The translations under genes and the position numbers were made by a program. A model generated the notes under the pieces. That model ran no database searches, had not been told where the DNA came from, and saw nothing but the letters and a program-made list of their open reading frames with translations. DNA of 64,000 nt from Verrucomicrobiota bacterium. Its GTDB lineage: Bacteria; Verrucomicrobiota; Verrucomicrobiia; Chthoniobacterales; Chthoniobacteraceae. The DNA is taken from NCBI GenBank assembly GCA_037975925.1, contig JBANFR010000002.1, forward strand, positions 4,041 through 68,040, given 5' to 3'. Shown one piece after another: positions 7,655 through 44,441 of this stretch; within the stretch, counting starts at the first letter, position 1, and every line of letters begins with the position of its first letter.

Positions 7655-8007
7655 GTGAGGTCTTGCTTTTGTGCGCCTTCTGCCAAGTGGTTGGTTTTCT
7701 GAGGGATTCCTTCGCCTCGCGATTTCATTTTGGAGTGTTGATTTTTTTGAACATGCGGGAATCTGCGAGGTCTCACGACCACGGAATTAGAAGTCGAGAC
7801 GATGCGGTCGTTCACACAGAACTTTCTTCATCATTTCAAGGGCGGCGCTGGATGCCCAAGGGAGCTCCTTTATGAGTTTTCACGGGGTGGGGGGCGCGGA
7901 TTGATCCGGGGTGATCGCCCGCCCCAGTGCTTCCCAATCCTTTTTTCTCCTCTCGTTGTTTTTTCCGGATTCATGAGTCAACCCCTCTTCCCTCAAAACA
8001 TCTTCCT

Positions 8008-11266: not shown

Positions 11267-11289
11267 TTTATTTACTGATTGGATTGTTT

Positions 11290-13077: not shown

Positions 13078-13096
13078 ATGGGAAGGTGACAGGGCA

Positions 13097-13888: not shown

Positions 13889-13908
13889 GGGCGCGGGGCA
13901 GGGGTGAA

Positions 13909-15986: not shown

Positions 15987-16184
15987 GAACCTTGAGGATG
16001 GGTGTGCCGGCGAGGATAGGCAAGTTTAGGGGGGGGGATGCGGGAGGGGCTCCTGCCGCGGGAGCCAAAGAATCGAACAACTTCCTAAAAGTCAGTTATT
16101 TCAACTGAGGAATCTTCCGATTAACTAAGTAGACACCTAATTTGAGGCTGGCGAAGTGATCGTCCCTCTAACCTCTGCGAAGCC

Positions 16185-17795: not shown

Positions 17796-17911
17796 GAGGG
17801 GACCCTCGCAAGGGGTGTGCGCAACGGAGGCCCCTCTGTGCTTGTCAGCAAGTGCTGCGGGGGCGGCCAATCTCCCGGAGTTTTCCCCCCTTGGGGTGCA
17901 ACGAGGTACTC

Positions 17912-25880: not shown

Positions 25881-25957
25881 CGGGCCGTAGTTCAGCTTGG
25901 TAGAACGCTTGAATGGGGTTCAAGAGGTCGCGAGTTCGAATCTCGCCGGCCCGACCA
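25881..25957 (+). tRNA. tRNA-Pro (anticodon GGG), with CCA encoded
   Basis: Hand-folded cloverleaf. The acceptor stem is CGGGCCG/CGGCCCG (C1:G72, A73), the D stem is GTTC/GAAC and the anticodon stem is CTTGA/TCAAG. The loop is A-T-GGG-G-T (U33, G37). The T arm is GCGAG-TTCGAAT-CTCGC, followed by ACCA. Confidence 0.95.
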
Positions 25958-26128
25958 GCTTCCTTTCGTTTGGCTGCCCTCCTTCGTTCTCTTGTTTTCC
26001 CTGAAGCGTGGGCCCGGATTTTCAGAGCGGAGGACTCACGCAGACGAGGACGGGCTAAGGAGGCGTGTGGGCGTGGGTCTTTCATGAATGACAGGCGCGA
26101 GCAACGCGTCCTCTTCCCAGAATTGTTT

Positions 26129-27313
26129 ATGAAAATGCGTTCTTTGTTTTTGGTCGGTGCCGGCTTTTTTGCGGCGTGTTCCTTCGTGGATTTACATGCT
26201 GCAGCCCCCAAAAAGGTGCTGGTGGTGACGGTCACCACGGGTTTTCGGCATGGTCCTGCGATTGATGCGGCTGAGAAGGTGTTGCCTGAGCTTGCAGCGC
26301 AGAGTGGCGGCGAGGTGTCCTTTGAGTTTCTGAGCCAGCCGGGGCCGAGGCCCAGTGTGGGCAAGCCGCCGGAGCGCGGGGCCAACCTCACGGACGAGCA
26401 ATGGGCGACCCTTCAGCAGAACCACAAGGACTTGGCGGCGAAGGTGAAGGCTGAGGAGGCGGAGTGGTCCGGCAAAGTCAAAGAGTTGTTCGCGCAGAAG
26501 CTCAGCGCGGAGGCGCTCAAGGGGTACGACGGTGTGGTGTTTTGCAATACCACTGGGGAGCTGCCATTGCCTGATGGCGAGGCGTTTGCGAACTGGATTA
26601 AGTCCGGCAAGGCGTTTGTGGGGATGCATGCGGCAACGGACACGTTGAAGGCGATGCCGGCCTATTACGAAATGATCAACGGCTCCTTTGCCGGGCATCC
26701 GTGGGGGGCCGGTGGTTCGTATACGTTTGTGAACCACGAGCCTTCGCATCCTGCGGTAGCGATGTTTCCGGGTGAGTTTCAATGGAAGGACGAGATTTAC
26801 CAATACAACCATTTCAACCCTGAGACGGTCCGGGTGCTGATCAGTCTGGACACGGTGCGTTCGAGTCCGCGGGCTCCGTACCACGTACCCGTGGCATGGG
26901 TGCGTGATGTGGGGGCGGGGCGCCTTTTTTACACAAACTTTGGGCACAATGCATCAACCTGGACGGAAGAGGCTTATCAAAAGCATGTGATGACCGGGTT
27001 GCGCTGGGCTTTGAAGTTGGTGGATGGACCTTCCGCTCCGAACCCTGGGGTTTCGACGCAGACTGCAATCAAGGGAGTGGTGGCTGTGGCGGCTGCGGCG
27101 CTCAACAAGGACGCCGCAGCGCTGGAGACGAAGGCGCTAGCGAAGGCGAAGGCGGATGTCCAATGGGGCTTGCACGCCCGCTCGGAGGCGGACCTGTACC
27201 GCAAGTTTCCCAATCCCGACGTGAAAAAGGGAGCGAAGCCGGAGGAGGTGGAGGCGGTGGCGGCGAAAAAGCTCGAACTGTTGACCCGGTTGGTCGCGGA
27301 AATTGAGCAGTAG
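26129..27313 (+). CDS. ThuA-domain protein, secreted, with a C-terminal helical extension
   Basis: Signal peptide MKMRSLFLVGAGFFAACSF (an alternative ATG lies at 26084). KKVLVVTVTTGFRHG, GVVFCNTTGE and FVGMHAATDT are typical ThuA blocks. Confidence 0.7.
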   Translation: MKMRSLFLVGAGFFAACSFVDLHAAAPKKVLVVTVTTGFRHGPAIDAAEKVLPELAAQSGGEVSFEFLSQPGPRPSVGKPPERGANLTDEQWATLQQNHKDLAAKVKAEEAEWSGKVKELFAQKLSAEALKGYDGVVFCNTTGELPLPDGEAFANWIKSGKAFVGMHAATDTLKAMPAYYEMINGSFAGHPWGAGGSYTFVNHEPSHPAVAMFPGEFQWKDEIYQYNHFNPETVRVLISLDTVRSSPRAPYHVPVAWVRDVGAGRLFYTNFGHNASTWTEEAYQKHVMTGLRWALKLVDGPSAPNPGVSTQTAIKGVVAVAAAALNKDAAALETKALAKAKADVQWGLHARSEADLYRKFPNPDVKKGAKPEEVEAVAAKKLELLTRLVAEIEQ

Positions 27314-27384: not shown

Positions 27385-29487
27385 TCAGTGGGTGTCCGTC
27401 AGGGGCGGGTGGCGCCGTGCGCTTTGCAGCAGGCGGGCGTAGGTCCCTTCGAGTTCCGGGACGAAGACCTCGGCTCGGGTAAAGTGATGAGCGACGCGTT
27501 CTCGCAACCGAGGGCGGAGGCTGAGCAGAGGCTCAGGATGAGTCGCCAGCGTGACCGCTTGGGCGATGTAATCCTCCTTGGTGGAGGTTACAAATTCTGG
27601 AAGCCCAAGCCTTTGAAGGATGGCGGCGGCTGCTCTTGCGGGAGGCGTGTTCCCTGCAAGCGTGACACAGGGGACTCCCATCCAGCAGGAGAGAAGGGTG
27701 ACGGTGAGTCCGTTGTAGGGAAAAGGATCGAGACAGAGGTCCAACTCGGCGTGTGCGGCGAGGTAGGCGGGCATGGATTGCCGGGGCATTTCCGTGATGC
27801 GTTCCGGGGCGATCCCTGCCTCGAGGAGGGTTTTGGTCAGCGTATTTCCGGCCCGCCCAAAAAATAAAAACCGCGATTGGGGGGCGGCCTGGAGAATCTG
27901 AATCCAAGTTTGAGCGACCTCGTTGGTGACCTTGATCAGTTCGTTGGTGCAACCGAAGGTAAACGGACGGCCCCGGCTGACCGGTGACGCGGCGACTGCA
28001 GGTGCCTCTGTGGGAGGTGAAAAAACGAAGGCACCGCTTTGGAGACGGACCCGTTGCTCGGTGTGATAGGCCTTGTCGGAGTCGTCCGGATCCAGGAAGG
28101 GGTCTGTGATCCGGTAGCCCATGGACTGGAGGCCGGTGGTCTGCATGAGCCCGAGCATGGTGATTTGAACCGGGGCGGGACGATAAGCGAAGGCGGGGAG
28201 GCGGTTGCCGGAGGTGTGGTTGGAGCAATCGACGAGGATATCGATCCGGTCGGACTGGATGAGCTGGGCGAGAGCCTGGTCATCGAGGGAGTGGATTTCG
28301 CGCCATTGATCGGCGTGGCCGCGGAGTCGGTGAGTGACGGCGTCCTGATTGGGGTGGTTGGAGTAGCAGAAGATTTCGAAGCGGGATCGGTCGTGGGAGC
28401 GCAGGAGTGGCTCGACAAAAAAGGCGATCGAGTGGTTGCGGAAATCGGCGGAAACGTAGCCGACGCGGATGCGGGAGGAAGTGACGGGGGTTTCGAACCG
28501 TTGGGCGAATTGTTGAAATTGAGCGAAGTGCGCTTCGGGATTGCGGATTTGGAGGTAGTTGAGCGCCTGGAGGAGTTGGCTGTGGACGACAGGGTCTTGA
28601 GGGGAAAGCTCGAGAGAATGTTGGAGAGCGCGGATGGCTTGTTCGTGTTCGCCCACCTGCATGAGGCCTCCGGCGAGAAAGCGGAGCGGTGTGGGCCAAT
28701 CGGGGCGCAGGGTCGAGGCAGCAAGCAAGTGGTTGATGCCGTCCTGGGTTTGTTCGAGGTCGATTTGAGTGGTGCCGAGTCGGAGATGTGCGCTGGCATT
28801 TTCCGGGTTGAGTTCGAGGGCGGCTCTGAAACAGGCGGTTGCGGCGCTCGGATCGGGGATTCGGTTGAGGAGATCACCGAGTTGGATGAATAGAATTTCA
28901 GCGGTTGGTCGGACTTGGATTGCGCGACGGAGGACCTTGCAAGCCGAGGCAAGGTCTCCTGAGCGTTGAAGAGCGGCGGCGCAAGGGCCTGGGGAAATGA
29001 TCGAAGCAGGGGTGGAGTGGAGTGCTCGCTGAAGGAGGGAGATGGCTTGGGCGAGGCGATTTTCTTCGAAGGCGGTGACTCCAGCGCGTGCTTCCGCCGG
29101 CTCGCAGACCGAGGCGAGGGTGAGGTGGGATTGAGCGCGCTCGGTCTGGCCGAGTGCGGCGAGAATTTCGGAAAGGAGTTGCTGTACTGCGGGCTGATTT
29201 CGTGGGCACTCCAACGCAATTTCGGCAAAAGGGAGAGCGGCCGCGTGCTGCTTTCGGTGGTGCAAGAGAGCGGCGAGCAGGCGGGAGGATTCCACGGCTT
29301 CCGCGCCGTTTTGAAGGGCTTTGATCAGGGTTCTTTCGGCTTCGCGGAACTGGCCGATCAGGCAGGAAAGTTTGGCGAGTCCGAGCAGCGCGACAGGATC
29401 TTCCGGGTTGGCTTGAAGGGCGGCTTTGAGAAGGGCCGCAGCGGCTGCAAAATCGCCGGAGTCGAGGAGGTCGGTGATGGGATTCAT
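27385..29487 (-). CDS. TPR-repeat protein with a C-terminal SPINDLY/GT41-like (O-GlcNAc-transferase-like) glycosyltransferase domain
   Basis: The N-terminal ~330 aa are TPR-like repeats. The C-terminal block is RIRVGYVSADFRNHSIAFFVEPLLRSHDRSRFEIFCYSN...IDILVDCSNHTSGNRLPAFAYRPAPVQITMLGLMQTTGLQSMGYRITDPFLDP...LDPFPYNGLTVTLLSCWMGVPCVTL. This matches the bacterial COG3914/Glyco_transf_41 pattern. The start is taken at ATG 29487; the track start at 29553 is TTG. Confidence 0.8.
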   Translation of the reverse strand: MNPITDLLDSGDFAAAAALLKAALQANPEDPVALLGLAKLSCLIGQFREAERTLIKALQNGAEAVESSRLLAALLHHRKQHAAALPFAEIALECPRNQPAVQQLLSEILAALGQTERAQSHLTLASVCEPAEARAGVTAFEENRLAQAISLLQRALHSTPASIISPGPCAAALQRSGDLASACKVLRRAIQVRPTAEILFIQLGDLLNRIPDPSAATACFRAALELNPENASAHLRLGTTQIDLEQTQDGINHLLAASTLRPDWPTPLRFLAGGLMQVGEHEQAIRALQHSLELSPQDPVVHSQLLQALNYLQIRNPEAHFAQFQQFAQRFETPVTSSRIRVGYVSADFRNHSIAFFVEPLLRSHDRSRFEIFCYSNHPNQDAVTHRLRGHADQWREIHSLDDQALAQLIQSDRIDILVDCSNHTSGNRLPAFAYRPAPVQITMLGLMQTTGLQSMGYRITDPFLDPDDSDKAYHTEQRVRLQSGAFVFSPPTEAPAVAASPVSRGRPFTFGCTNELIKVTNEVAQTWIQILQAAPQSRFLFFGRAGNTLTKTLLEAGIAPERITEMPRQSMPAYLAAHAELDLCLDPFPYNGLTVTLLSCWMGVPCVTLAGNTPPARAAAAILQRLGLPEFVTSTKEDYIAQAVTLATHPEPLLSLRPRLRERVAHHFTRAEVFVPELEGTYARLLQSARRHPPLTDTH

Positions 29488-29554
29488 GGACGGGACGTTG
29501 GCCTGAAGAAGGGGTGGATGGGTGAAGGGACAGGAGGAATGCGAGGGGGACAAA

Positions 29555-29585
29555 CAAAAAACGCCTCTTTGAGGGAGGCGTTTTT
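29555..29585 (-). terminator. rho-independent terminator between the small TPR gene and the 700-aa TPR-GT41 gene
   Basis: On the minus strand, aaaaacgcctc / gaggcgttttt form a stem with a 7-nt loop, followed by TTTTTTGTTTG. It is flanked by an A-tract and a T-tract, so it is potentially bidirectional. Confidence 0.65.
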
Positions 29586-29654
29586 CAGCACAGAAACTGC
29601 CGAATTCGAGGGGTCTTATAGGCCTTATGCGAGGCCGTAGCCCAGAGGAACGAC

Positions 29655-30113
29655 TCAGGCCGGAACCTGCTCTGGAACGGGAGCGGGAGCCTCGGCTTCG
29701 GGGGTGGCGGAAAGCCCCGCGAGCGTGGCGAGATCCGAGGCGCGTCCCAAGGCGGACAGGAGGGCGGTCGCTTCAGAGCGGAGTTCTGCACTTGCCGGGT
29801 TGGCATGAACGCTCGCGAAGAGGAGATCGGCTGCCTCTTCGTGGCGCTGAACATTTTTGAGAATGGAGGAGATTTTCAGCACGGTGGGTACGTCCGGCCA
29901 ATCGGGATCGATGGAGTCGGCCAGCAATGCCAGAGCGCTTTCGTGTTGGTGGACCGAGAGCATTGCTTCGGCAAGGCTCCGGAGGGCCTGTGGATGTCCC
30001 GGGCTGATTTCGAAAATTTCGCGGAAAACGTTCGAAGCTTGAGGCAGTTCTCCCCGCGCGACCAAGGAATTGGCGTCATGGAGGAGTTGGGAGATTCTTT
30101 CTTGCTGTGGCAT
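29655..30113 (-). CDS. small TPR-like helical protein (152 aa), function unknown
   Basis: Start at the internal ATG at 30113 (MPQQERISQLLHDANSLVARGELPQASNVFREIFEISPGHPQALRSLAEAML...). It has helical-repeat character and a Pro/Ala/Glu-rich tail. The longer track ORF has an R/P-rich, non-protein-like N-terminus. Confidence 0.45.
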   Translation of the reverse strand: MPQQERISQLLHDANSLVARGELPQASNVFREIFEISPGHPQALRSLAEAMLSVHQHESALALLADSIDPDWPDVPTVLKISSILKNVQRHEEAADLLFASVHANPASAELRSEATALLSALGRASDLATLAGLSATPEAEAPAPVPEQVPA

Positions 30114-30192
30114 GGGGCGGAGGGCAGCAGAAAGGGTGCCAGACCAGTCGGGGGGGTGCTGCAAGGGTTTCCGAGCGGCCTCTTTGCGCGAA

Positions 30193-32268
30193 TCAGGCGG
30201 GATCGTTTGGAGGAACGGGTCCCCCCTCGGGCGCGTGGGCGGTGGGGGGCGAACCGAAACGGTGGCGAAACAGGGCATCGCTCCTCGACCATTCGGGGTC
30301 GTCGAGACTGCGCAGACCCGGGGAAGCATGGATCAGGTGAATGGGAAACACTCCGGCGGTCATGCCCTTGCGCTTGGCGTCAAGGGAGGCCACGAGGTCG
30401 TAATGGTGGAAGCGAAATTGGGTGTCGAACCGCCATCCCACAGCCATGGCGGAGGGCAGATGGACCCCGAGGAAAAGCCCATCGAGCAGTTCGACGGTGC
30501 TTGGGCTGGGGCCAAAGCACACGCTGGTCTGGGTGCGTTGTTCGGCCTCAAAATGCCCGGCAGCCCCGCGCAGTTGGTCGCGCGGACACATCAGGTGCCA
30601 CAGCGATGGATAAACGATGGCGGGTTGCGACCCTCCGGCCACGCCGATCAGATGAAAGCCGTGCTTCTTGTGCGCTCTTTCCAATTTCAGAGTCAGCTGG
30701 GGGTCGTCGATGAACACGTCGTCGTGCACAAAAACCGCGAAGCGGTACCCGGCGTGTGCGGCGGCTTCGAGTTTTGCGTTGTAGACTTCCGGAAGTCCCA
30801 GGCGGTTTTCGAAGGTGAGGTCGAGGTCCACCCCGGAGTTTGGGTGGCCAAAGTTTTGACGAAAAGACCTGACCAAGAGGAGGCCTTCTGCGGCGCTTGC
30901 GGGTTTGCTGGAGCAGGAGACGAGGAGCGTTTTTCCGTGCAAGGAGGAGCCGGTGCTGCCGGGCCACAGGATTTCGGGAGGGGCCTCGTGGGCGAGCGCG
31001 AGGCCTTGGCTTAGGAGTTCCGTGGCCAGGTCGCTGTGTCCGGCGGCCTCCAGAAGGCGGCCGAGCTGGAGGTAAGCCTGTGGTTGGCGGGGGGCTTTCT
31101 GGACGGCGATTTGCGAGAGGCGTGCCGCGTCGGAGATCCGCCCTGCGGAGAGGAGGAGTTCTGCCAGGGTGTGGGCGAGGAGCGGGTGATCGGGGCAGGC
31201 GTCGAGCGCCCTTTGGAGGAGTGCGACGGCCTCCTGTGGGGCTTTACCTCCGGCTTTCAGGAGGGCCAGCACCAGAGCAAAGTGCGGGTTTTGCGGATGC
31301 GCTTCCTGAAGGCGTTTGTAAGCCGCAATTTCCCTCTCCAAGTTTGGTCGCGCATGGAGTTCAAGAAGTAGGCGATGCGGGGCGCATTGGACGGAAAAGG
31401 GGATTTCTGGGCCGATGGGCAACGGGGTGGAATCGGAGTCCGGAGCGGGCCAATGGCAGCTGGCGGCGAGAGCCTTGGGGGACAGTCTTTCAGAGATACC
31501 GAGCTCTGCGGCTCCCCAGGAGCGGGCGCACTCGGCCTGCAGTGGTGGACGGAACAGCCAGGACGGGAGTCCTTCCGTCGTGTGCGTTGGATCTCCGGGA
31601 AGCGGGGGAAGGAGAGAGACTCGGGCGCCGCGGAAGGCCGCGTGCGGGAGCCAATGCCCGGGGCGATTGCCGCTGACGAAGGTGGCTTCGCTAAAAAGCC
31701 GGGCTGCTTCCCTCAGGGAAGCGGCGCACAGGAGATTTTCTTCAAAGGGGAGGAACTCCACCCCTTGATGGCGCAAGTCGCTCAGAGATTCGGCGGCGGC
31801 TGCATGGAGGTGTGGGGGAAGGCAAACAACGATGCGTTGCAGCAATTTTCCCAAAGGCAGGAAGGGCGAGACCGAAGCCGCTACGAGGGCAGTCAGTGAG
31901 GCGAGTTGCGCGGGGTCAGGGGAAAGCAGGAGGAGTAGGCTTTGCGGGATTCGCGGCGTCTCGGGGTCGGGAAGGTAGACTGCGGGAAGTCCCATGGCGG
32001 TCACCTTTGCGTAACCTTGGGAGCGGAGCATTTCGGCGCGGGAATGCCGGGCGACACGGAGGTGATTGTGGATGCCTCCCGGGACCGGGCCTCCGAAAAG
32101 CTCCGACTCCGAAGGGGGCGTTTGGCTTGAGGGAATCCAGCGGGTTTGCCAAACCCCGTCAGGGAAGGCCGGGTGGGCAGACGTTCGGCACCAGGCCGTG
32201 AACAGGGACCCGAGATCAAACTCGGGATGGAACCAAGTGACGGCGCGTGGGGTCGGGTTGGAATTCAT
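30193..32268 (-). CDS. three-part protein: unknown N-terminal domain, central TPR repeats and a C-terminal GT-A-like glycosyltransferase domain
   Basis: 691 aa. TPR-like repeats occupy about residues 300-450 (LQRALDACPDHPLLAHTLAELLLSAGRISDAARLSQIAVQKAPRQPQAYLQLGRLLEAAG). The C-terminus LPEVYNAKLEAAAHAGYRFAVFVHDDVFIDDPQ...LIGVAGG resembles the GT-A pattern YN..i..a...d.lvFvHdDv (DxD-like HDD). Confidence 0.6.
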   Translation of the reverse strand: MNSNPTPRAVTWFHPEFDLGSLFTAWCRTSAHPAFPDGVWQTRWIPSSQTPPSESELFGGPVPGGIHNHLRVARHSRAEMLRSQGYAKVTAMGLPAVYLPDPETPRIPQSLLLLLSPDPAQLASLTALVAASVSPFLPLGKLLQRIVVCLPPHLHAAAAESLSDLRHQGVEFLPFEENLLCAASLREAARLFSEATFVSGNRPGHWLPHAAFRGARVSLLPPLPGDPTHTTEGLPSWLFRPPLQAECARSWGAAELGISERLSPKALAASCHWPAPDSDSTPLPIGPEIPFSVQCAPHRLLLELHARPNLEREIAAYKRLQEAHPQNPHFALVLALLKAGGKAPQEAVALLQRALDACPDHPLLAHTLAELLLSAGRISDAARLSQIAVQKAPRQPQAYLQLGRLLEAAGHSDLATELLSQGLALAHEAPPEILWPGSTGSSLHGKTLLVSCSSKPASAAEGLLLVRSFRQNFGHPNSGVDLDLTFENRLGLPEVYNAKLEAAAHAGYRFAVFVHDDVFIDDPQLTLKLERAHKKHGFHLIGVAGGSQPAIVYPSLWHLMCPRDQLRGAAGHFEAEQRTQTSVCFGPSPSTVELLDGLFLGVHLPSAMAVGWRFDTQFRFHHYDLVASLDAKRKGMTAGVFPIHLIHASPGLRSLDDPEWSRSDALFRHRFGSPPTAHAPEGGPVPPNDPA

Positions 32269-32283
32269 GCGTGGAGCCGTGAG

Positions 32284-35200
32284 TTACTGTGCTTTGGCGC
32301 ACCATTCAGTCCAAATGCGCCGGAGATGCTGCTCGAATTCGCGGACATACGCCTCCGTGTTGGCCAAGTGATGCTTGCAGCGCGAACGGAGCGAGGCCCG
32401 AACCTTCCCCAGAAAAGTCCAGTCCTTCGCCAAACGGACGGTGGCTTCTTCGTAGGCGGCCTCGTCCCGGGCCACAAATTCGGGGAGTCCCAGCCGACGC
32501 ATGATCGCCGATCCGGCGCGTCCGGCAGCACAGTGGCCCTCGATGGTGATGCTGGGAACACCCATCCACGCCGCGATGGAGTCGATGGTGAGCCCTGTGT
32601 AGGGAAAGGCGTCGAGGAGCAGATCGGTGCGCTGGTGCAGTGCCAGATACTCTTTCCTCAAAAGAACCCCCACCGGTTCAATGCGTTCAGGCGCGATGCC
32701 GAGGTTTGCCAGTGCATCACGAATGGTTTCCGGACTGCGCCCGACGACGATGAGGCGTGAGTCGGGGATGCGATGAAGAATCTTCGCCCAGACGGCGAGG
32801 ACCGTGGGTTTGATTTTTGCGAGGTTGTTGAAGGAGCCGAAGGTGAGGTGACCGTTTTGCAGGGCGGGGAGAGGATTGACGGGGGGGGCGTCCGCGATGG
32901 GTTCAAGGCAAAAAGCCCCGGCCTCCATGCGAATGAGCGTCTCCGTGTGCAGATGCTCGGTTTGCCCGACGGGATCCATCCACTGGTCGGAGAAGCGGTA
33001 GTCCATGGAGCGGAGTCCCGAGCTCTGCATGCAACCAATCATCGTGACCTGAATGGGCGCGGGTTTGTGTCCGAAGAGAAGGACGCGGTTTCCCGCGGTG
33101 TGGCCTGAAAAATCAATGAGGATGTCGATTTGATCGGCCCGGATGCGCTCCGCGACGGCGGAGTCGGAGTGGCCGAGAATGGGACGCCAATGGTCCACAG
33201 AGCGGCGCAGTCGCAGGCTGACGGGATCTTCGATGGCGTAGTTGTAGTAACAAAACACCTCGAACTGGTCGCGATTGTAGCCGCGCAGCAGGGGTTCGGC
33301 GAAGTAGTGAACGGAGTGTTCGCGGAGATCAGCGGAGACGTAGCCGATCCGCAGTTTGCGTTCGGGGTCCCGGAGATTGGGGTGAGGGGTGGCGCGGCGG
33401 AGGTAGGGGGTCTCGAAGCGTTCGCTGAACTCCCGGTACTTTTGGAATATCTCCTCCGGGGTGACGGTTTCCTCGTAGTTTAGACAAAAAATGAGGCTGC
33501 TGAATGCGCCTTGGGAGGAAGGGTTGAGTTCGAGGGCCTTTTCAAAGAGGGAGATGGCCTCGGTATTCTTGCCCATTTGGACCAAGTTGGACCCCAGGTT
33601 GAGGTAGCCCATGAACCAATTCGGCGCGATCTGAATCAGTTCGCGGAACACTTTCTCCGCCGCGGCAAAGTCTCCCTTCTGGCGCAGTGAAACTCCTAAA
33701 TTATTGATTGCGGTCGTATTACGCGGCTCCAAGCGGAGTGCGCTCCGGAGAACCTCAATGGCCTCGTCATTCTGGAACAGTTCCTTGAGTGCGGCGCCCA
33801 GATTGATCCGCGGCTCGGCTTTTTCGGGGTGTAATCCGACGGCCGTCCGGAGGGATTCCACGGCCTTCGAGAAGCGTCCGCAGTTGATGTAGGCGACGCC
33901 CCGCGCGAAGTGGGCGGAATAGGATTCCGGCCAGGGGTGATCTTTCGGATTGAGCACCTCCAAAGCCTCGAGGGGCTGGTCGAGGACCTTGAAGAGAAAC
34001 GCCCCCAAGCCCTGGCGCAGCCCTGCGTTGTCCGGCGCAATTCGGAGCGCTTCGCGGTAAGCGGTCTCGGCCTCCGCAAACCGCTCCAAAGCGCGGAACG
34101 TGTCTCCCAAACGCAGCAGAGTCTTGAGGTCGTTCGGGTCTTTTTTCGCAAGGATCTGGCTCACCTCCAGCGACTCCCGGTGGCGGCCGATGGAGCTGAA
34201 GAGTTCCGCGACGGAAGCCAGGATGGCCGGGTCGTCGTGTGCAAGCGTTGCGGCGGTTTGCAAATCATTCGCGGCCCTTTCGGGTTGCGCCTGCTGGATG
34301 GAGACGGAGGCGAGCAGCAGGAGCGGCTCGGGTTCCCCAGGGGTTCGGCGGTGCCAGTGCTCGAGTTCGTGGGTTGCTTCATTCAAAAGTCCCGTGGCGA
34401 GAAGTGTTTTTGCAATAATCCTCGTTTGAGTGAGTTGTGTGTCAAAAGAGTGCTGATCGCGGTTGGCCTCGCACCATTCCGCCCACAGTCCCAAGAGGCG
34501 TCCTTCCAGTTCCCGCGTGAATCGAGATGCGTCGCAAAAGCGCTCCCGAACCCTGTTCCGCAGCGAAATTCGGTCCGGCAACAGGCTCTCCGGGGTCCGA
34601 GCAACCTCGAGCGCAATTTCGACATAGTGCTCGGGAGTTTTCGCAATCCACCCCTCCAGACCAAGTTGGGCGTTGATGGCGCTGGCGCTGCGCGCCACGG
34701 AGTGTTCCCCCTCCAGGCTGAGGCACGGCACCCCCATCCATGCCGCAAAGAGGGTTCCCGTCAGTCCGCTGTAGGGGAAGGTATCGAGGAGGACATCGAC
34801 TTCGGAATGAAGCTCGAGGTAGGCCTGCAGCGGTCGACGTTCCAGGACAATGAGGCGCTCCGGGGCGATCCCCAAAGACTGGAGAGCCTGTGCGGCGCGG
34901 TTCCTCTTTTCCCCGACCATGAGGAGACGCGTGTTCGGCGCTTGGGTGAGGATTTGGGCCCAGCATTCGAGCACCCGAGCGCTGATCTTTGCCGAATTGT
35001 TGAAGGAGGCGAAGGTTACTCCCTGACCTTTGGAAAACGGCGCAGGACTGACTTCGGGACCGTTTGGCGGGGGCCAAAAGCAGAAGGCTCCGGAGTCGAG
35101 GCGGAGCAATTTTTCAGAGTGGAAAGCCTCCGTCTGGCCTGCCGGGTCGAGAAAAGCGTCCGTGATCCGGAAGTCGATGGACGACAGCCCGGTCGTCTGC

Positions 35201-36714
35201 ATGCAGCCAATGGTGGTGAGTTGGATGGGGGCGGGTTTCCGGGCGAACACGGGGAGACGATTGCGGGCGGTGTGTCCGGAAAGGTCGAAGAGGATGTCGA
35301 TACGGTGGTGGCGGATGAGGGCCTCCATGGCGTCGTCGTGAAGAGCGTGAACCTCGTGCCAATGGTCAAAGAGGGAGCGGAGATGGTCGGAGAGTTTGTC
35401 CTGCCTAGGCCGGTTGGAATAGGCGAAGAGTTCGAACCGGGAGCGGTCATGTGCCCGGAGGATGGGTTCGAGAAAGAAGGCGACCGAGTGCATGCAGAGG
35501 TCGCCTGAGACGTAGCCGACGCGGATCTTGCGGAGCGGGTCGGGATCCGAGAGCGGGAAGGGGGGAGGCTCAGGTCGGGAGGCCTCGTGAAGGAGATGGA
35601 ACTGGCGGTGGAGTTCGAATCGTTCGCGGGGAGAGAGGTCGTCGCGGTAGTTGGAGGTGTAGAGGAGGTCGCTGTGGAGGGAGGCGTTGAGCGGAGCCAG
35701 TGCGTGTGCTTGTTCGAAGCAGTCGAAGGCTGCCCGCGCGTCGCTTGCTCGGAGCAAGGTGGCGGCTCTTTCGAGCAATGCAGCCTGTTTTCCGGGGGTC
35801 AGCTGCAACGCTTTTTCAGAGGCTGATAAAGCACCGGGAATGTCTCCGAGTTCGCGCAGGGCGGTGGCCAAGTGGAGCCATGCACCGGCCCAGTCGGGTT
35901 GATGGCGGGTCACCTTCGAGAGAAGTCGGGCGCCCTCCTCGAATTGGTTGGTTTTTACGAGCGCCGTACCGAGGTTGTGCAGGGTGTGCAGGGAGTCGGG
36001 AGATTTCTCCAAGGCGCGGCGGAGGGTGCTGATGGCCTCTCCGTAAGCGCCCTTTTGAAAGAGGAGCGTTCCGAGACAGTGGAGGACGAGAGGGGAGTTG
36101 TCTCCAAAACGGACACAGGTGGCGTAAACGTCGAGGGCCTCGTCGGGAAGATCGTTGGCTTCCAGTGCTTGGCCGAGGGCGAACAGCACCTCTGCGGAGT
36201 TCGGAGAAAGCGCCGCTTCGCGTCGGAAGTGGAGCAGGGCGTCCGCAGCACGCCCCTCCTGAAGTCGAAGATGGCCCAACCTCGCATGGAGTCCCGGAGT
36301 GGTGGGGTGGTTCTGAAGAGCTTCCTCGAGGAATTGCCGGGCGAGGGCTTGCTCTCCCGCCTCGGTGAGGGTCTCAAGGAGAAATGAATAGAGGTGGGTG
36401 ACATTCGGCGCCCGGAGGGCCGCCGCGTGAAAAACGGGGAGAATGCGATCGCTTTCTCCCAGAGTTTGCAGGGTTCGAAGCAGAAGTTTGAGGGAGGCGG
36501 TGCACGTGGGGGTGGCCTCGAGGCTTTTCTGAAGTAAACTCTTGGCTACCATCGGCTGACCCGAGGAGAGGTGGAACGAGGCGAGGTGAAAGGCGGCCTC
36601 GCGATGAGTCGGTTCGATGGAGAGGATTTGGCGGCACAGTTCCGCACCTTCCTGAAGATGGCCGAGGCGGAAGTGGTTTTGAGCGCTGACGAAGAGTTCT
36701 GAAATGGAGGACAT
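32284..36714 (-). CDS. giant TPR protein carrying two complete [TPR array + SPINDLY/GT41-like glycosyltransferase] modules in tandem
   Basis: 1476 aa from ATG 36714 (the track start at 36744 is TTG). Module 1 catalytic block: KIRVGYVSGDLCMHSVAFFLEPILRAHDRSRFELFAYSN...IDILFDLSGHTARNRLPVFARKPAPIQLTTIGCMQTTGL. Module 2 catalytic block: KLRIGYVSADLREHSVHYFAEPLLRGYNRDQFEVFCYYN...IDILIDFSGHTAGNRVLLFGHKPAPIQVTMIGCMQSSGL. A multi-repeat TPR region precedes each. Confidence 0.8.
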   Translation of the reverse strand: MSSISELFVSAQNHFRLGHLQEGAELCRQILSIEPTHREAAFHLASFHLSSGQPMVAKSLLQKSLEATPTCTASLKLLLRTLQTLGESDRILPVFHAAALRAPNVTHLYSFLLETLTEAGEQALARQFLEEALQNHPTTPGLHARLGHLRLQEGRAADALLHFRREAALSPNSAEVLFALGQALEANDLPDEALDVYATCVRFGDNSPLVLHCLGTLLFQKGAYGEAISTLRRALEKSPDSLHTLHNLGTALVKTNQFEEGARLLSKVTRHQPDWAGAWLHLATALRELGDIPGALSASEKALQLTPGKQAALLERAATLLRASDARAAFDCFEQAHALAPLNASLHSDLLYTSNYRDDLSPRERFELHRQFHLLHEASRPEPPPFPLSDPDPLRKIRVGYVSGDLCMHSVAFFLEPILRAHDRSRFELFAYSNRPRQDKLSDHLRSLFDHWHEVHALHDDAMEALIRHHRIDILFDLSGHTARNRLPVFARKPAPIQLTTIGCMQTTGLSSIDFRITDAFLDPAGQTEAFHSEKLLRLDSGAFCFWPPPNGPEVSPAPFSKGQGVTFASFNNSAKISARVLECWAQILTQAPNTRLLMVGEKRNRAAQALQSLGIAPERLIVLERRPLQAYLELHSEVDVLLDTFPYSGLTGTLFAAWMGVPCLSLEGEHSVARSASAINAQLGLEGWIAKTPEHYVEIALEVARTPESLLPDRISLRNRVRERFCDASRFTRELEGRLLGLWAEWCEANRDQHSFDTQLTQTRIIAKTLLATGLLNEATHELEHWHRRTPGEPEPLLLLASVSIQQAQPERAANDLQTAATLAHDDPAILASVAELFSSIGRHRESLEVSQILAKKDPNDLKTLLRLGDTFRALERFAEAETAYREALRIAPDNAGLRQGLGAFLFKVLDQPLEALEVLNPKDHPWPESYSAHFARGVAYINCGRFSKAVESLRTAVGLHPEKAEPRINLGAALKELFQNDEAIEVLRSALRLEPRNTTAINNLGVSLRQKGDFAAAEKVFRELIQIAPNWFMGYLNLGSNLVQMGKNTEAISLFEKALELNPSSQGAFSSLIFCLNYEETVTPEEIFQKYREFSERFETPYLRRATPHPNLRDPERKLRIGYVSADLREHSVHYFAEPLLRGYNRDQFEVFCYYNYAIEDPVSLRLRRSVDHWRPILGHSDSAVAERIRADQIDILIDFSGHTAGNRVLLFGHKPAPIQVTMIGCMQSSGLRSMDYRFSDQWMDPVGQTEHLHTETLIRMEAGAFCLEPIADAPPVNPLPALQNGHLTFGSFNNLAKIKPTVLAVWAKILHRIPDSRLIVVGRSPETIRDALANLGIAPERIEPVGVLLRKEYLALHQRTDLLLDAFPYTGLTIDSIAAWMGVPSITIEGHCAAGRAGSAIMRRLGLPEFVARDEAAYEEATVRLAKDWTFLGKVRASLRSRCKHHLANTEAYVREFEQHLRRIWTEWCAKAQ

Positions 36715-36815
36715 CGAGGTTGAAGGCGCGGTCGGCGTGAGCAAAAGAGGTGCCGCCCCGGGGGCGGTTTTGACGGGATTTGATGGTCCGGGAGAGCTCT
36801 GTATAGTGGGGGGAG

Positions 36816-37892
36816 ATGTCCCTTCCGCTCCTGAGCTTATGTGTGATCGCGCGAAATTCAGCGGAAATTCTGGCTCGTTGTCTGGGATCGGTGCGGGGAG
36901 CGGTCGATGAAACCGTCGTGGTAGACACCGGCTCTACCGATGGAACCGAGTCGGTCGCCGCGGCCCTGGGAGCCCGGGTGATCCGTTTCGAGTGGACCGG
37001 TGATTTTAGTGCGGCGCGCAATCGGAGCCTGGAGGAGGCGACGGGGCGTTGGGTGTTGGTTTTGGATACTGACGAGTGGATGGAAGCGGGGGCGGCGCAA
37101 CAAGTCCGGGAGTTTGTGGAACAGTGGGAGCATGACAACCCCGACAAAAGGGCGGCTTTTCGCATCCGCCACCGGAGCGTGGCGGCCGGGTCGGGTGGTA
37201 CGGGGTCGCTTGCTCTGTTGACCCGGCTGTTCCCGCGGATTTCCGGTGTCTGCTACGAATTTGCGGTGCACGAGCAGGTGGAGACGAGTCTGCTTCGCTT
37301 GGGGGTGCCGGTTTTGGAGGATCTCTGGGATCGGCCGGTGGAGATTCTCCACGATGGCTACGTCGAACCCGAAAAGGTACGTGAAAAGCAGTGGCGAAAT
37401 TTGGAGATATTTCAGGAGCAAATCCGGCAGGGCAGCGGCTTCTTGCCGATGAACCGTTTTTTGCTCGCCGGTTGTCTCTGGGATCTGGGCGCCTATTCGG
37501 CCGCTTTGGCTGCCTACCGACTCTGTTACGTGGAGGCGCTCCAAGCGGGGGATGTCCAGTTGGTTTCCAGCGCGTTGATTCGCAGTTCGGCGTGTCTGGT
37601 GAAAGAAAAGGACTGGGAGGGAGCCCGTGAATTGTGCCGGGCGGGTCGCGCAATCGGCGCAAGCCATCCCGAATTTCTTCTCACTCAGGCGAGGGTGGCC
37701 TTTCATTTCGGAGAACGCGAGGAGGCCGAGATCCTCGTGAAGCGGTTGAGCCAATTGGAGGAGAGGCCTTGGGTGCCTCCCTGCGACGTGGGAATGCTGC
37801 GCATGAAGGCGGAGCTCTGGTTGACGAAGGAGTTGCTCCGCGCCCGATTGGGCAAAACGTCAGAGCAGTCCGTCGACGACTGGCTTTCCTAA
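36816..37892 (+). CDS. family-2 glycosyltransferase (GT-A) with a C-terminal TPR-like helical domain
   Basis: LSLCVIARNSAEILARCLGSVRGAVDETVVVDTGSTDGTESVAA...FSAARNRSLEEATGRWVLVLDTDEWM shows a GT2 fold with a DxD motif (DTDE). A GGGGGGAG Shine-Dalgarno-like run lies before the ATG. The gene is divergent from the 1476-aa gene. Confidence 0.8.
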   Translation: MSLPLLSLCVIARNSAEILARCLGSVRGAVDETVVVDTGSTDGTESVAAALGARVIRFEWTGDFSAARNRSLEEATGRWVLVLDTDEWMEAGAAQQVREFVEQWEHDNPDKRAAFRIRHRSVAAGSGGTGSLALLTRLFPRISGVCYEFAVHEQVETSLLRLGVPVLEDLWDRPVEILHDGYVEPEKVREKQWRNLEIFQEQIRQGSGFLPMNRFLLAGCLWDLGAYSAALAAYRLCYVEALQAGDVQLVSSALIRSSACLVKEKDWEGARELCRAGRAIGASHPEFLLTQARVAFHFGEREEAEILVKRLSQLEERPWVPPCDVGMLRMKAELWLTKELLRARLGKTSEQSVDDWLS

Positions 37893-37946
37893 GAGGACAA
37901 GGAGCCGCTGCCTCGTGGGCATGAACTCCGTGGGGCGGAAAAGGTC

Positions 37947-37983
37947 AAAAAAAAACCTCCTCCCGCGAGGGAGGAGGTTTTTT
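37947..37983. terminator. bidirectional rho-independent terminator between the GT2 gene and the flagellin genes
   Basis: A9 - cctcctccc - gcga - gggaggagg - T6. The perfect 9-bp stem is flanked by an A-tract and a T-tract, so it serves both convergent transcription units. Confidence 0.85.
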
Positions 37984-38013
37984 GAACGGGATAACTCCGG
38001 TTCCAGTAAAGGA

Positions 38014-38844
38014 CTACTGGAGGAGTTTGAGGGCGATCTGAGCCGAAGCGTTCGCCTGGGAAAGCATCGCGGATCCAGCTTGGACCAAGATGTTGTTCCG
38101 AGCGAGACGGGTGGTTTCCATTGCGACGTCGACGTCGATGATGCGGCTGTTCGCAGACTCAAGGTTGGTCCGATTGGTTTCCAACGAGTCCAGAGCGAAC
38201 TGCAAACGGGAGGACTGAGCACCGTTGTTGGCGCGATTCGTGGCCATCTCTGAGATCGCGCTCGAGATCGAATCAACGGACAGACCCTGGAAGGCTGCCA
38301 CGCTGCTGATGCTGGCTGTATCCATCACCGCGGTCATTGCGGAGGTCGAGAGAGCGACCTGCGAGATGCCCATGGTCTGGAGACCGTCTTCCGACAAACG
38401 CACCGTCAGGCTTCCGCTCGAGGTAGCCGCCGCAAAGAGGCTGATCCCGTTGAAGGACTCCGTCATCACCTTGGAGAACTCAAGCTGCAAAGAATTGAAT
38501 TCCGTGAGGTAGTTGTTGATGTCACCCGTCGTCTTGGTGACGTCGGAGGCCAGGGTGCGCAGCTCAGACATGCGCTGGAGAACGTCCGCCGCAGCCTTCA
38601 AGGATCCGTCCTGCGTCTGGAGGAAGGAGAGTGCGTTGGAGACGTTTGCAGAAGTGGCGTCCGTGCGTTTCAAGGCAGCCGCCAGACGGGTGGAAACCGC
38701 CAAGCCGCCGGCGTCATCCGAGGAGGTCGCAATCTTGGATCCGCTGGAGAGGCGCTGAAGGCTCTTCTGCAAGAGCATATTGCTCTTGGAGAGGTTGGTC
38801 GAAGCCAGGCTGGCTGGAATATTCGTGTTAATGGAAATAGCCAT
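38014..38844 (-). CDS. fliC: flagellin (276 aa, short form without large outer domains), downstream paralog
   Basis: The N-terminus is MAISINTNIPASLASTNLSKSNMLLQKSLQRLSSGSKI...DDAGGLAVS. The C-terminus is ANSRIIDVDVAMETTRLARNNILVQAGSAMLSQANASAQIALKLLQ. These are canonical D0/D1 flagellin termini. Confidence 0.95.
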   Translation of the reverse strand: MAISINTNIPASLASTNLSKSNMLLQKSLQRLSSGSKIATSSDDAGGLAVSTRLAAALKRTDATSANVSNALSFLQTQDGSLKAAADVLQRMSELRTLASDVTKTTGDINNYLTEFNSLQLEFSKVMTESFNGISLFAAATSSGSLTVRLSEDGLQTMGISQVALSTSAMTAVMDTASISSVAAFQGLSVDSISSAISEMATNRANNGAQSSRLQFALDSLETNRTNLESANSRIIDVDVAMETTRLARNNILVQAGSAMLSQANASAQIALKLLQ

Positions 38845-38884
38845 AAATTAAGATAGTTTTAGAATTCAGTAGAGCGGGAGCAGA

Positions 38885-39715
38885 CTACTGGAGGAGTTTG
38901 AGAGCGATCTGAGCCGAGGCGTTTGCCTGAGAGAGCATCGCCGAACCGGCCTGAACGAGGATGTTATTGCGCGCCAAACGGGTGGTTTCGAGTGCCACGT
39001 CCACGTCGATGATACGGCTGTTGGCCGCTTCGAGGTTGGTGTGGTTGGTTGCCAGAGCGTCCAGAGCGAACTGGAGGCGGGAGGACTGAGCTCCGTTGTT
39101 TGCGCGGTTGGTCGCCATCTCGGAGATCGCACTCGAGATTGCATCCGTGGACAGGGCTTGGAATGCAGCCACGTCAGACACGTTGTTGCCATCCACCACG
39201 GCGGTCATCACGGAGGTCGAGAGAGCGACCTGCGAGATGCCCATGGTCTGGAGACCGTCTTCGGAGAGTTGGACTGTCAGACTTCCGTTTGAAGTGGCCG
39301 CCGCGAAGAGACTGATCCCATTGAAGGACTCCGTCATCACTTTGGAGAATTCAGCCTGAAGGGACTTGAATTCGGTGAGGTAGTTGTTGATGTCACCCGT
39401 GGTTTTGGTGACGTCGGAAGCGAGGGTGCGCAGTTCAGACATGCGCTGGAGGACGTCGGCTGCCGCCTTCAGAGATCCGTCCTGGGTCTGGAGGAAGGAA
39501 AGGGCATTCGATACGTTTGCGGAGGTTGCGTCGGTCCGCTTGAGAGCAGCTTCCAAGCGCATGGAAACGGCGAGACCACCGGCGTCATCGGAGGCGCTGG
39601 CGATTTTGGAGCCGCTGGACAGGCGTTGGAGGCTCTTTTGAAGCAGAGAATTGCTCTTGCTGAGGTTCGTCGAGGCGAGGCTCGCCGGGATGTTGGTGTT
39701 GATTGAAACGGGCAT
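38885..39715 (-). CDS. fliC: flagellin (276 aa), promoter-proximal paralog
   Basis: MPVSINTNIPASLASTNLSKSN...LLQ has the same architecture as 38014-38844. 26 of 276 residues differ by hand alignment. An AAGGA Shine-Dalgarno sequence lies 4 nt before the ATG. Confidence 0.95.
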   Translation of the reverse strand: MPVSINTNIPASLASTNLSKSNSLLQKSLQRLSSGSKIASASDDAGGLAVSMRLEAALKRTDATSANVSNALSFLQTQDGSLKAAADVLQRMSELRTLASDVTKTTGDINNYLTEFKSLQAEFSKVMTESFNGISLFAAATSNGSLTVQLSEDGLQTMGISQVALSTSVMTAVVDGNNVSDVAAFQALSTDAISSAISEMATNRANNGAQSSRLQFALDALATNHTNLEAANSRIIDVDVALETTRLARNNILVQAGSAMLSQANASAQIALKLLQ

Positions 39716-39803: not shown

Positions 39804-39831
39804 TGATCGGTCACCTGGGGGGGGAACTTAA
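39804..39831 (-). promoter_or_regulatory. candidate sigma28 (FliA)-type promoter for the flagellin pair
   Basis: The minus strand reads TTAAGTTC-N12-ACCGATCA against the consensus TAAAGTTT-N11-GCCGATAA (6/8 and 6/8 matches). It lies about 90 nt upstream of the ATG at 39715. The spacer contains a C8 run. Confidence 0.45.
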
Positions 39832-43388: not shown

Positions 43389-43403
43389 GGAGAAGGCTGT
43401 TGC

Positions 43404-44441
43404 ATGATGCGGCGCATGCGCCCGTCGATTGAGACCTCTGAGTTGGTGCTGGCGATTGTAGTGATTCCTTTGGCCAGCCTGGTTTGTTTTTGGGGGGGGC
43501 GATGGATGCAGCGGCGATGGGGCGTGCCGCTTGGGCTGCGGTTCAAGGTCATGGTGTGGAGCCTTTGCGCTTATTTTGCCGGGCGTATCCTCCAGACCTC
43601 TCTGGAGAAAGTGCCGGGTGCCGCAGTGATCCCGACGCTGCTAAGAATCCTTCTCGCGGCAGCCATTTTCTCCGGTGCGCTACTATGGGTGAGTCTGATT
43701 CGCAAATACTTCTGGAGCGGCTGGTTTCAGCGTGTCCAAGAGGTGCGTCCCCCCCGGTTTGTCTCCGATGTGGGAAATGCGCTGATTGTCGGAGGCGCGC
43801 TCTTGTTCATCGCACAGGGAGTGTTTGGGGTGCAGGTGATGGATCTCAAATTGGGGTCTACCGTCTCGGTGGCCATTCTGGGGTTTGCCTCCCAGGACTT
43901 GCTGTGAAACCTGCTTGCCGGGATCGCGCTGCAAATGGCGAGTCCCTTTAAGCCGGGCGATTGGTTGCAGCTGGATGGGCGTCGCCTGCAGGTCTTGGAA
44001 GTGAATTGGCGGGCGACCCGGATGCGCTCCCCGGACAACGTGCTCGTGGAGGTGCCGAACAAAACGGTGGCGGGCGGGACCATTGTGAACCTGTCTGCTC
44101 CGACTCAGGAGCGAGCCTCCTCGGTGCTGGTGGGGCTGGAGTACAGCGCGGCGCCGGAGGCGGTGAAGGCGTGTTTGAAGGCCTCGGCTGAAAGAACTCC
44201 CGGGGTGCTACTGGATCCGCCCCCACGAGTGGTCCTGAAGGATTTTGGAGAATCTGCGGTGCAGTATGAGGTCAGTTTTTGGGTAGCGAATGAAGAGACT
44301 CTCGCGGAGGCCTCCGATACACTCAGAACCCACATCTGGTATGACCTGCAAAAGTCGGGCTTCAGGACGCCCTATCCGATGAGAAAAGTGCACTGGGTTC
44401 CCGCAGACGAGAATCCCGGCCCAAAGGGTTCCGCTGTCTGA
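43404..44441 (+). pseudogene. MscS-family mechanosensitive channel interrupted by one in-frame TGA (43905-43907)
   Basis: Track ORFs 43404-43907 and 43935-44441 are in the same frame. Reading across gives ...VAILGFASQDLL*NLLAGIALQMASPFKPGDWLQLDGRRLQVLEVNWRATRMRSPDNVLVEVPN... This is the contiguous MscS TM3/beta-domain signature (Q-D-x-L-x-N-x-x-x-G...PF..GD.I). The stop falls at the variable x position. Confidence 0.7.

Follow-up and report, generated by a model that had tools for sequence, protein, structure and literature searches.

A candidate flagellin glycosylation island with tandem GT41 modules in a Verrucomicrobiota bacterium

What do five clustered genes for tetratricopeptide repeat (TPR) proteins, four of them with glycosyltransferase (GT) domains, do directly beside a pair of flagellin genes? 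The question is raised by a 64,000-nucleotide stretch of contig JBANFR010000002.1 from a freshwater Verrucomicrobiota bacterium (hereafter the window), in which these genes, designated G1 to G5, adjoin two tandem flagellin genes. Glycosylation of flagellin affects motility, filament stability, phage attachment and immune recognition, and to our knowledge the way in which cytoplasmic O-glycosyltransferases choose their targets is still poorly understood. A literature search returned no report of flagellin glycosylation in Verrucomicrobiota.

Judged from sequence comparisons, the block is probably a flagellin glycosylation island whose products act on flagellin. The initial annotation had named it a candidate flagellin-modification locus, and three lines of evidence now back that proposal. 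G5 is homologous to the GT domain of GmaR, a proven flagellin glycosyltransferase. Homologues of the GT41, GT2 and G3-type GT-A domains adjoin flagellin genes of other Verrucomicrobiota recurrently, in diverse contexts and far above a permutation expectation. Finally, GT41 enzymes have already been reported in flagellin glycosylation islands (PMC4875605, PMC6637903).

A block of TPR and glycosyltransferase genes beside two flagellins

The GT block is contiguous and lies directly beside the flagellin genes, with 122 bp separating the 3' end of G5 from flagellin A. Flagellin A (38014..38844, minus strand), the presumed acceptor, and flagellin B (38885..39715, minus strand) each comprise 276 amino acids (aa), carry Flagellin_N and Flagellin_C domains, and are 90.6% identical to one another; residues 141-200 of flagellin A form a Ser/Thr-rich center. 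G5 (36816..37892, plus strand, 358 aa) combines a GmaR-type GT2 domain (residues 4-205) with a short TPR-like C-terminal part. The remaining four genes occupy the minus strand. G4 (32284..36714, 1476 aa) encodes two TPR plus GT41 modules in tandem, defined by Pfam matches and referred to as G4a (residues 1-770, nucleotides 34405..36714) and G4b (residues 771-1476, nucleotides 32284..34404). G3 (30193..32268, 691 aa) joins a GT-B-like N-terminal domain to TPRs and a GT-A-like domain, G2 (29655..30113, 152 aa) consists of TPRs only (Pfam TPR_19 and TPR_14), and G1 (27385..29487, 700 aa) has TPRs over residues ~1-310 followed by a GT41 catalytic domain over residues ~320-700. No signal peptide or convincing transmembrane segment was found in any of the five products.

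All seven open reading frames (ORFs) of the initial annotation were recovered at their coordinates with the Pfam domain content it described. Its count of five TPR-GT genes needs correction, as TPRs occur in all five products and a GT domain in only four, G2 being a TPR-only protein. Its count of five catalytic domains may likewise be one short: the part of G3 that had been left as an unknown domain is itself GT-B-like, which would give perhaps six carbohydrate-active domains.

The gene models agree with independent sequences. The 700-aa form of G1 is 100% identical to an NCBI protein of a Verrucomicrobiota metagenome-assembled genome, and the 691-aa form of G3 is supported by full-length homologues of 673-682 aa. 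Longer TTG-initiated forms of G1 (722 aa) and G4 (1486 aa) were rejected, as the shorter forms better match homologues and public annotation; the 152-aa form of G2 agrees with homologues of 139-148 aa, and the 224-aa longest ORF was rejected on those lengths. A Joint Genome Institute annotation (P0121) contains only the C-terminal 382 aa of G3 and so misses the N-terminal domain, although homologues are conserved from residue 1.

G5 matches the Pfam GT2 model PF00535 (E 2e-19) and, weakly, TPR_19 (E 9e-5). Its residues 4-205 match the glycosyltransferase domain of Listeria GmaR (PDB 22ao_A) with an E-value of 1.1e-29 and ~30% identity, and its DXD motif, DTD, aligns with the DAD motif of the GmaR GT2 catalytic domain. 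GmaR O-GlcNAcylates flagellin, its central TPR domain has been proposed to recognize flagellin, and its C-terminal domain acts as an anti-repressor (PMC9638930). G5 shares with Listeria monocytogenes GmaR an N-terminal GT2 catalytic domain followed by TPR-like helices. In contrast to the 637-aa GmaR, the 358-aa G5 lacks the linker and the MogR-binding anti-repressor domain (PMC9638930), so that no regulatory role is implied for it.

A second architectural parallel is FlmG of Caulobacter and Brevundimonas, compared here by description. FlmG is likewise soluble, with an N-terminal TPR region and a C-terminal GT-B-fold transferase, and serves short flagellins of ~275 aa; its TPR domain binds flagellin and its GT-B domain transfers pseudaminic (Pse) or legionaminic (Leg) acid (PMC7591256). 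TPR domains bind flagellin in Maf-1 as well as in FlmG (PMC7591256; bioRxiv 10.1101/2023.12.03.569772). FlmG has been reported as confined to Caulobacterales and needs CMP-nonulosonic acid pathways (bioRxiv 10.1101/2023.12.03.569772).

Flagellin loci across the phylum

A search with flagellin B as query, limited to one genome per species, yielded 78 loci, all from Verrucomicrobiota, 74 of them with a called flagellin ORF. Within 10 kb of flagellin, GT41 domains occur in 12 of the 78 loci, G5-like GT2 genes in 9 and the G3 GT-A domain in 3. Homologues of the island's GT domains are present in 19 of the 74 loci with a called flagellin, and in 14 of these 19 a GT gene is the immediate neighbor of flagellin. 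The initial annotation had asked for such a check of co-occurrence and adjacency in relatives; seen from the flagellin loci, the link extends beyond this one genome. Permutation of gene order gave a mean of 5.1 immediate neighbors (standard deviation 1.9), and none of 10,000 permutations reached 14, the null being gene order within loci.

The arrangements differ widely. One locus has the order FliD-GT41-flagellin (L072); in another, five flagellin copies precede a 1240-aa TPR-GT41-GT4 fusion (L030); a third runs from flagellin to an 810-aa GT41 protein, a G2-like gene and a 1358-aa double-GT41 protein, three GT41 modules in all (L031). GT41 genes stand divergent from flagellin within Maf islands (L025, L027), a TPR-GT9 fusion is found at one flagellin locus (L071), and G3-type proteins are encoded immediately upstream of flagellin in two (L029, L048). 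Homologues of G5 lie directly beside flagellin in eight other loci, namely L009 and, at a distance of ~175 bp, L050, L051, L065, L068, L074, L079 and L081.

Among the closest relatives, the 85% relative (L007) has the same locus, and the 49% relative retains only the G2-G1 pair, on short contigs (L005, L006). Three loci are syntenic with the window in a set comprising a cyclic nucleoside monophosphate (cNMP)-gated channel gene, mscS, tilS, serS, lacI and two flagellins. One of these, L008, ends too early to show what lies at the island site. L009 carries homologues of G3, G4, G5 and G2 (37-55% identical) in another order and without G1 (10969-19057), and L010 has, at the same site after its two flagellins, a DUF1501 gene, a gene for a 1391-aa PSCyt1/PSCyt2/PSD1 protein and an IclR regulator gene (10969-17094). 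Because the block is rearranged in L009 and replaced by unrelated genes in L010, it is, by comparison of these sequences, a variable insertion at the flagellin locus, with a variable flagellin-distal junction. The "unusual complexity" ascribed to the block at the outset therefore needs a qualifier: the island is elaborate, yet only in relative terms, since two to four GT domains are found at related loci and L009 has nearly the same set, without G1.

Variable GT41 islands of this kind are known from enterobacteria, where 14 of the 42 catalogued types of flagellin glycosylation island contain GT41 enzymes (PMC4875605). In the fliA-fliC cluster of Dickeya dadantii the two glycosyltransferases, Dda3937_03424 (annotated as an O-linked GlcNAc transferase) and Dda3937_03419, are thought to yield a disaccharide, and mutating one of the two genes lowered the flagellin mass from 32170 to 28890 Da, a loss of ~3.3 kDa (PMC6637903). 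The enterobacterial islands, with enzymes of the SPINDLY family (COG3914), resemble the window in having GT41 genes beside flagellin, more than one GT per island, and variability between relatives (PMC4875605, PMC6637903); for the Dickeya protein the comparison is by annotation. They differ in carrying sugar-modifying genes (transaminase, methyltransferase and others), whereas a Pfam scan found none inside the window island, and the latter has three GT41 modules (two of which form a single protein), a non-canonical active site, and a host in another phylum.

Maf-type systems (PF01973, with or without TPRs or GlfM) share the genomic niche, as Maf-type islands fill the same slot in ~16 other related Verrucomicrobiota loci. 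They differ in fold and donor chemistry, and no Maf domain (PF01973, MAF_flag10 or MptE-like) was matched in the scanned window proteins.

Two further gene sets recur at these flagellin loci. In Chthoniobacter-like loci, conserved uncharacterized genes beside flagellin encode a 160-190-aa protein without a Pfam match, here called u163, and a 490-570-aa TPR-only protein, often together with a sigma-54 activator (L011, L016, L018, L021, L026, L028, L034, L035, L038, L044, L045, L058, L060, L066, L083). Sigma-54-like sites precede u163 and its TPR-only gene, and the set may be another flagellin-handling module. Opitutales-type flagellin loci combine Maf islands with genes for an ATP-grasp protein, an unnamed 618-667-aa protein, a MobA-like nucleotidyltransferase and a MOSC-domain protein (L025, L027, L032, L037, L040-L042, L047, L049, L052, L055, L059, L062, L063, L070); in L025 and L027, SPINDLY-like GT41 genes are present alongside Maf.

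Several observations weigh against flagellin glycosylation as the function of the block. The permutation has the within-locus scope noted above. The promoter and terminator calls given below are consensus matches only. No sugar-nucleotide biosynthesis gene was found among the ORFs scanned across the 64-kb window, and none of the pse, leg or neu (NeuB-type) genes occurs in it, which bears out what the initial annotation had reported. None of five loci with usable flanks that hold some of the closest homologues of G1, G3 and G4 (L001, L003, L087, L088, L089) has a flagellin gene nearby.

These contexts are a reason to consider that the enzymes glycosylate other cytoplasmic or secreted proteins, either as general OGT- or SPINDLY-like enzymes or as transferases of the adhesin or pilin type, with the position beside flagellin being incidental or reflecting shared regulation only. 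Homologues in non-flagellar settings include P0005 and P0008 (40-44% identity), P0123 (L087), P0004 and P0015. The G1 homologues with 40-44% identity in L001 (7485-9985) and L003 (7532-9982) are preceded by a conserved trio encoding a hexapeptide-repeat acetyltransferase and two proteins of 390 aa and 208-215 aa, neither of which has a Pfam match; the trio may modify the donor for, or provide the substrate of, this GT41 subgroup. L087 retains the pair of G3 and double-GT41 genes without a flagellin, its neighbors being guanylate cyclase and methyltransferase genes. In L089 (3-911, 915-9467) a double-GT41 protein and further GT41 fragments directly follow an RTX-like glycine-rich repeat protein and precede an epimerase and CmcI-type methyltransferases, sugar-modifying genes; the repeat protein may be the substrate, in which case bacterial TPR-GT41 genes would tend to adjoin their targets. 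The Paraburkholderia homologue P0079 lies at a contig end with no flagellin in view, and counts for neither side. Bacterial GT41 enzymes modify pilin (bioRxiv 10.1101/2021.07.06.449578) and adhesins (PMC3012730). Because close homologues lack a flagellin nearby, the GT41 subgroup is, judged by gene context, not dedicated to flagellin, and the link is confined to some of its members.

For the window itself we nevertheless consider another substrate unlikely. In 14 species-level loci, whose flanks differ, a GT gene is the immediate neighbor of flagellin, G5 is homologous to a proven flagellin glycosyltransferase, and the gene set of L009 still lies beside flagellin despite its internal rearrangement.

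Active sites of the GT41 modules and the domains of G3

The Pfam model PF13844 (Glyco_transf_41, cut-off 25 bits) matches G1 with an E-value of 5e-44 and G4 with 3e-79, the latter in four stretches that make up two modules and are accompanied by many TPRs; each GT41 catalytic domain is preceded by N-terminal TPRs of multiple Pfam families. The three modules are paralogues, as had been proposed, with 42-47% identity among them over ~390 aa: 47% between the GT domains of G4a and G1, and 42-43% between G4b and the other two. The hand count of about 60% made earlier for G1 and G4a proved accurate, at 59.2% over the 125-aa block beginning (R/K)IRVGYVS. Tandem double-GT41 proteins are also found in L009, L031, L087 and L088/L089, and in split form in the Paraburkholderia locus.

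The best solved relatives of these catalytic domains are Thermobaculum TtOGT (PDB 5djs, E 2e-86) and Arabidopsis SPINDLY (PDB 7y4i, E 2e-70), with which the modules align over the whole catalytic length. Residues are given in SPINDLY numbering, and their roles are taken from published work (PMC9715652, PMC10027727). H495, S496, N661, K665, Y744 and T748 are retained in all three modules, among them the His-Ser pair (H495, S496) and the essential phosphate-binding lysine (K665, equivalent to K842 of hOGT).

Closer comparison with SPINDLY highlights the positions at which the modules diverge. In SPINDLY, K689, which is leucine in OGT, reads the guanine, H728 stacks on the base, T747 contacts the fucose, and E752 binds the ribose 3'-OH of the nucleotide, the E752A variant being inactive (PMC10027727). 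The window modules have Phe or Val at position 689, Tyr at 728, Leu at 747, and Leu, Phe or Ile at 752 in G1, G4a and G4b; position 731 is Ala or Leu (A731 in SPINDLY). They thus lack the signature of the SPINDLY-like clan (K689/A731/Y744 plus E752, the GDP-fucose type). They also lack that of the OGT/SEC-like clan (L866/R904/C917 in hOGT, which uses UDP-GlcNAc), with Tyr in place of C917 and a residue other than Arg in place of R904. The same variant signature occurs in L009, L031, P0003, P0005, P0007 and P0008 and is kept across homologues that are only 40-50% identical. The full SPINDLY signature (K689, H728, Y744, TTT, E752) is found in flagellin-adjacent GT41 proteins of L025, L027, L030, L072, L076, L083 and L084, except that L084 has Ser at 728.

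Read from the aligned residues, the signature of the window modules is therefore neither SPINDLY-like nor OGT-like, and since they differ at the donor-reading positions, known rules do not reveal their donor. UDP-GlcNAc is disfavored by the Tyr that replaces C917 (PMC9715652, PMC10027727), and the active-site signature gives no support to the earlier suggestion that the donors may be common UDP-sugars. With the equivalent of E752 missing, the modules might use an unforeseen donor or be impaired, and this counts further against the assignment of the block as a glycosylation island.

Impairment would open the way to a non-catalytic role, in which at least some GT41 modules, and perhaps all, are pseudo-enzymes acting as TPR scaffolds, as chaperones, or as regulators of flagellin or flagellar gene expression, comparable to the GmaR anti-repressor. 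Replacement of the ribose-binding Glu that is essential in SPINDLY (PMC10027727), together with the replacement of T747 and H728, speaks for such a role, and so does the failure of the closest solved relative, TtOGT, to show O-GlcNAc activity in vitro (PMC9715652). We consider it quite improbable all the same: the remaining catalytic residues, among them the counterpart of the essential Lys665, are intact, the conservation of the variant signature at 40-50% identity points to a selected altered active site rather than decay, and no DNA-binding or anti-repressor domain was found with Pfam.

A bolder proposal is that the window GT41 modules and their relatives in L009, L031, P0003, P0005, P0007 and P0008 constitute a new GT41 clan with a donor new to the family, since their nucleotide pocket has neither the acid that binds the ribose nor the residues by which OGT and SPINDLY read the base. 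In this view they would work with G3 and the GmaR-like G5 as an assembly line, docked by TPRs, that makes a complex flagellin glycan without linked sugar-biosynthesis genes. We regard this as tentative and doubtful.

The third type of transferase, G3, has three parts. Its N-terminal domain (residues 1-290, nucleotides 31399-32268, minus strand, as are the other two) is GT-B-like and has no Pfam match; the TPRs span residues ~310-430 (nucleotides 30979-31341), with the Pfam match at residues 314-405; and the GT-A-like domain, with an HDD motif, spans residues ~440-691 (nucleotides 30193-30951). The last is assigned by a match of residues 501-640 to PF13712 (Glyco_tranf_2_5, GT-A clan; E 1.6e-7, 31.7 bits against a cut-off of 27). 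A sequence search of the PDB returned no match to it, and it is ~51% identical to the proteins encoded directly upstream of flagellin in L029 and L048.

The N-terminal domain represents a large family for which there is no Pfam model; among 1.84 billion cluster representatives, 500 belong to it at E <= 1e-3 and 266 at E <= 1e-10. An AlphaFold (AF2) model of the domain, computed from 45 sequences, reached a predicted local distance difference test (pLDDT) score of 86.4 and a predicted TM-score (pTM) of 0.85. A full-length G3 model from a three-sequence alignment was too poor (pLDDT 41.8) and was not used. The best Foldseek matches of the domain model are GT-B-fold enzymes, namely UDP-GlcNAc 2-epimerase, glycogen synthase, TarM and WaaA, and these matches are weak (E 4e-5 to 1e-3, TM 0.3-0.44). 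Given them, G3 may carry two carbohydrate-active domains linked by TPRs, as far as the model can be relied upon. Full-length G3 is rare: a word-indexed search of 5.8 billion clusters returned two homologues, L009 has others, and partial homologues are present at L029, L048 and L076.

Elsewhere the N-domain family occurs standalone or fused to FkbM methyltransferase, GT4 or glycerophosphotransferase-like domains, which are common in polysaccharide loci, but synthesis by the block of a polysaccharide or glycolipid (capsule, exopolysaccharide or lipopolysaccharide) without any protein acceptor is very improbable, since flippase, polymerase, initiating phosphoglycosyltransferase, export and membrane proteins are absent, all five products are predicted to be soluble, every enzyme carries protein-binding TPRs, and GT41 is a protein-glycosylating family.

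G2 is a candidate adaptor or chaperone-like partner; its homologues accompany G1-like, GT41 or G3-like genes in L005, L006, L007, L009, L031 and L048.

Transcription signals, proposed mechanism and significance

Three sigma-54-type sites with at most one mismatch occur in the window, and two of them lie on the correct strand in short intergenic gaps of the island: TGGCACCCTTTCTGCT (30126..30141, minus strand), 13 nt upstream of the G2 ATG, and CGGCACCTCTTTTGCT (36740..36755, minus strand), 26 nt upstream of the G4 ATG. Over the whole window the sigma-54 consensus is not enriched, with 21 sites against 28.6 expected at up to two mismatches, so that just the two near-perfect sites inside the island deserve notice. 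A sigma-70-like consensus match precedes G5 (36780..36807, plus strand), and a sigma-28 (FliA)-type promoter-like site, TTAAG-N15-ACCGATCA (39804..39831, minus strand), lies 88 nt ahead of flagellin B. Where the G5 and flagellin genes converge, there is a hairpin resembling a bidirectional intrinsic terminator (37956..37977); its stem scores on both strands, with a T-run after it on each.

Similar motifs recur in related loci. The sigma-54 motif precedes, at 12-14 nt, not only genes of the G2-like, G3-like and GT41 types but also flagellin, fliD, fliW and rpoN; in L048 it lies 12 nt before both the G2-like and the G3-like gene (7936-7951, 12318-12333). A sigma-28-type motif stands ~95-100 nt ahead of flagellin genes in 16 related loci and also precedes fliD, flgK, one G5-like gene (L065) and one GT41-cluster gene (L071). 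As consensus matches, these promoter-like sites are consistent with the island belonging to the flagellar regulon, without proving it.

A separate observation concerns the spacing. Sigma-54-type motifs end just 12-14 nt from the predicted starts of G2, of G2-like and G3-like genes, of a flagellin and of several unknown genes (L048, L022, L024, L057, L072). Motifs so near the start codons suggest leaderless or near-leaderless sigma-54 transcripts in these Verrucomicrobiota.

Apart from the flagellins, no other flagellar gene was found among the scanned ORFs of the window. Its remaining content is housekeeping (argG, serS, tilS, uvrB, gltB, dxr, lepA, ABC transporters and the E2 component of pyruvate dehydrogenase). 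A ThuA-like gene (25913-27313) was considered as an island member and rejected, being conserved only in the 85%-identical L007 and absent from L009. The mscS gene (43389-44441, plus strand) is interrupted by one in-frame TGA near 43905-43907, and its frame aligns over 356 residues, with 55% identity, to the intact 365-aa MscS of L009; it may represent a pseudogene, a sequencing error or a read-through site. The G+C content falls to ~0.50 at 8-10 kb, over an ABC-transporter operon. GC skew is positive nearly throughout the window (1-64000) and the cumulative skew climbs steadily; the window therefore lies on one replichore, without an origin or terminus.

From the observed domain content, conservation of catalytic residues, homology of G5 with GmaR, conserved flagellin neighborhood and presence/absence variation, we infer as follows what the acceptor is, in which order the enzymes act, what the TPRs dock and where the donors come from. 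The five soluble cytoplasmic proteins would act on newly made flagellin before its export by the flagellar type III apparatus, the TPR parts docking the enzymes onto flagellin or onto each other, and the catalytic domains would glycosylate Ser/Thr residues in the short S/T-rich central region of both 276-aa flagellins. The first sugar could be added by G5, as an inverting GT-A enzyme of the GmaR type, by GT41 modules, or by both. The other catalytic domains, comprising the remaining GT41 modules and, in G3, the GT-A domain and perhaps also the GT-B-like N-terminal domain, would then extend this sugar or serve other sites, so that the several catalytic domains might either build an oligosaccharide stepwise or specialize, each on its own sites or on one of the two flagellins. 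A possible role for G2 is that of an adaptor, as GlfM is for Maf-2, and the donor sugars would come from pathways encoded elsewhere in the genome.

The kind of system is already known, from GT41 flagellin islands, GT2-TPR proteins (GmaR) and TPR plus GT-B proteins (FlmG). What is new is the phylum, the lack of sugar-pathway genes, the fusion of two GT41 modules in tandem, the variant GT41 pocket and the three-domain G3. The island gives a first functional context to the large domain family without a Pfam model that is represented by the N-terminal domain of G3. The tandem GT41 protein and the GT41 subgroup with an altered nucleotide pocket are compact test cases for the engineering of protein glycosylation. 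If the proposed function is correct, the island extends TPR-guided flagellin glycosylation to the Verrucomicrobiota, a phylum in which the same slot beside flagellin holds interchangeable systems: Maf, SPINDLY-like GT41, variant GT41, GmaR-like GT2, and TPR-GT4 and TPR-GT9 fusions.

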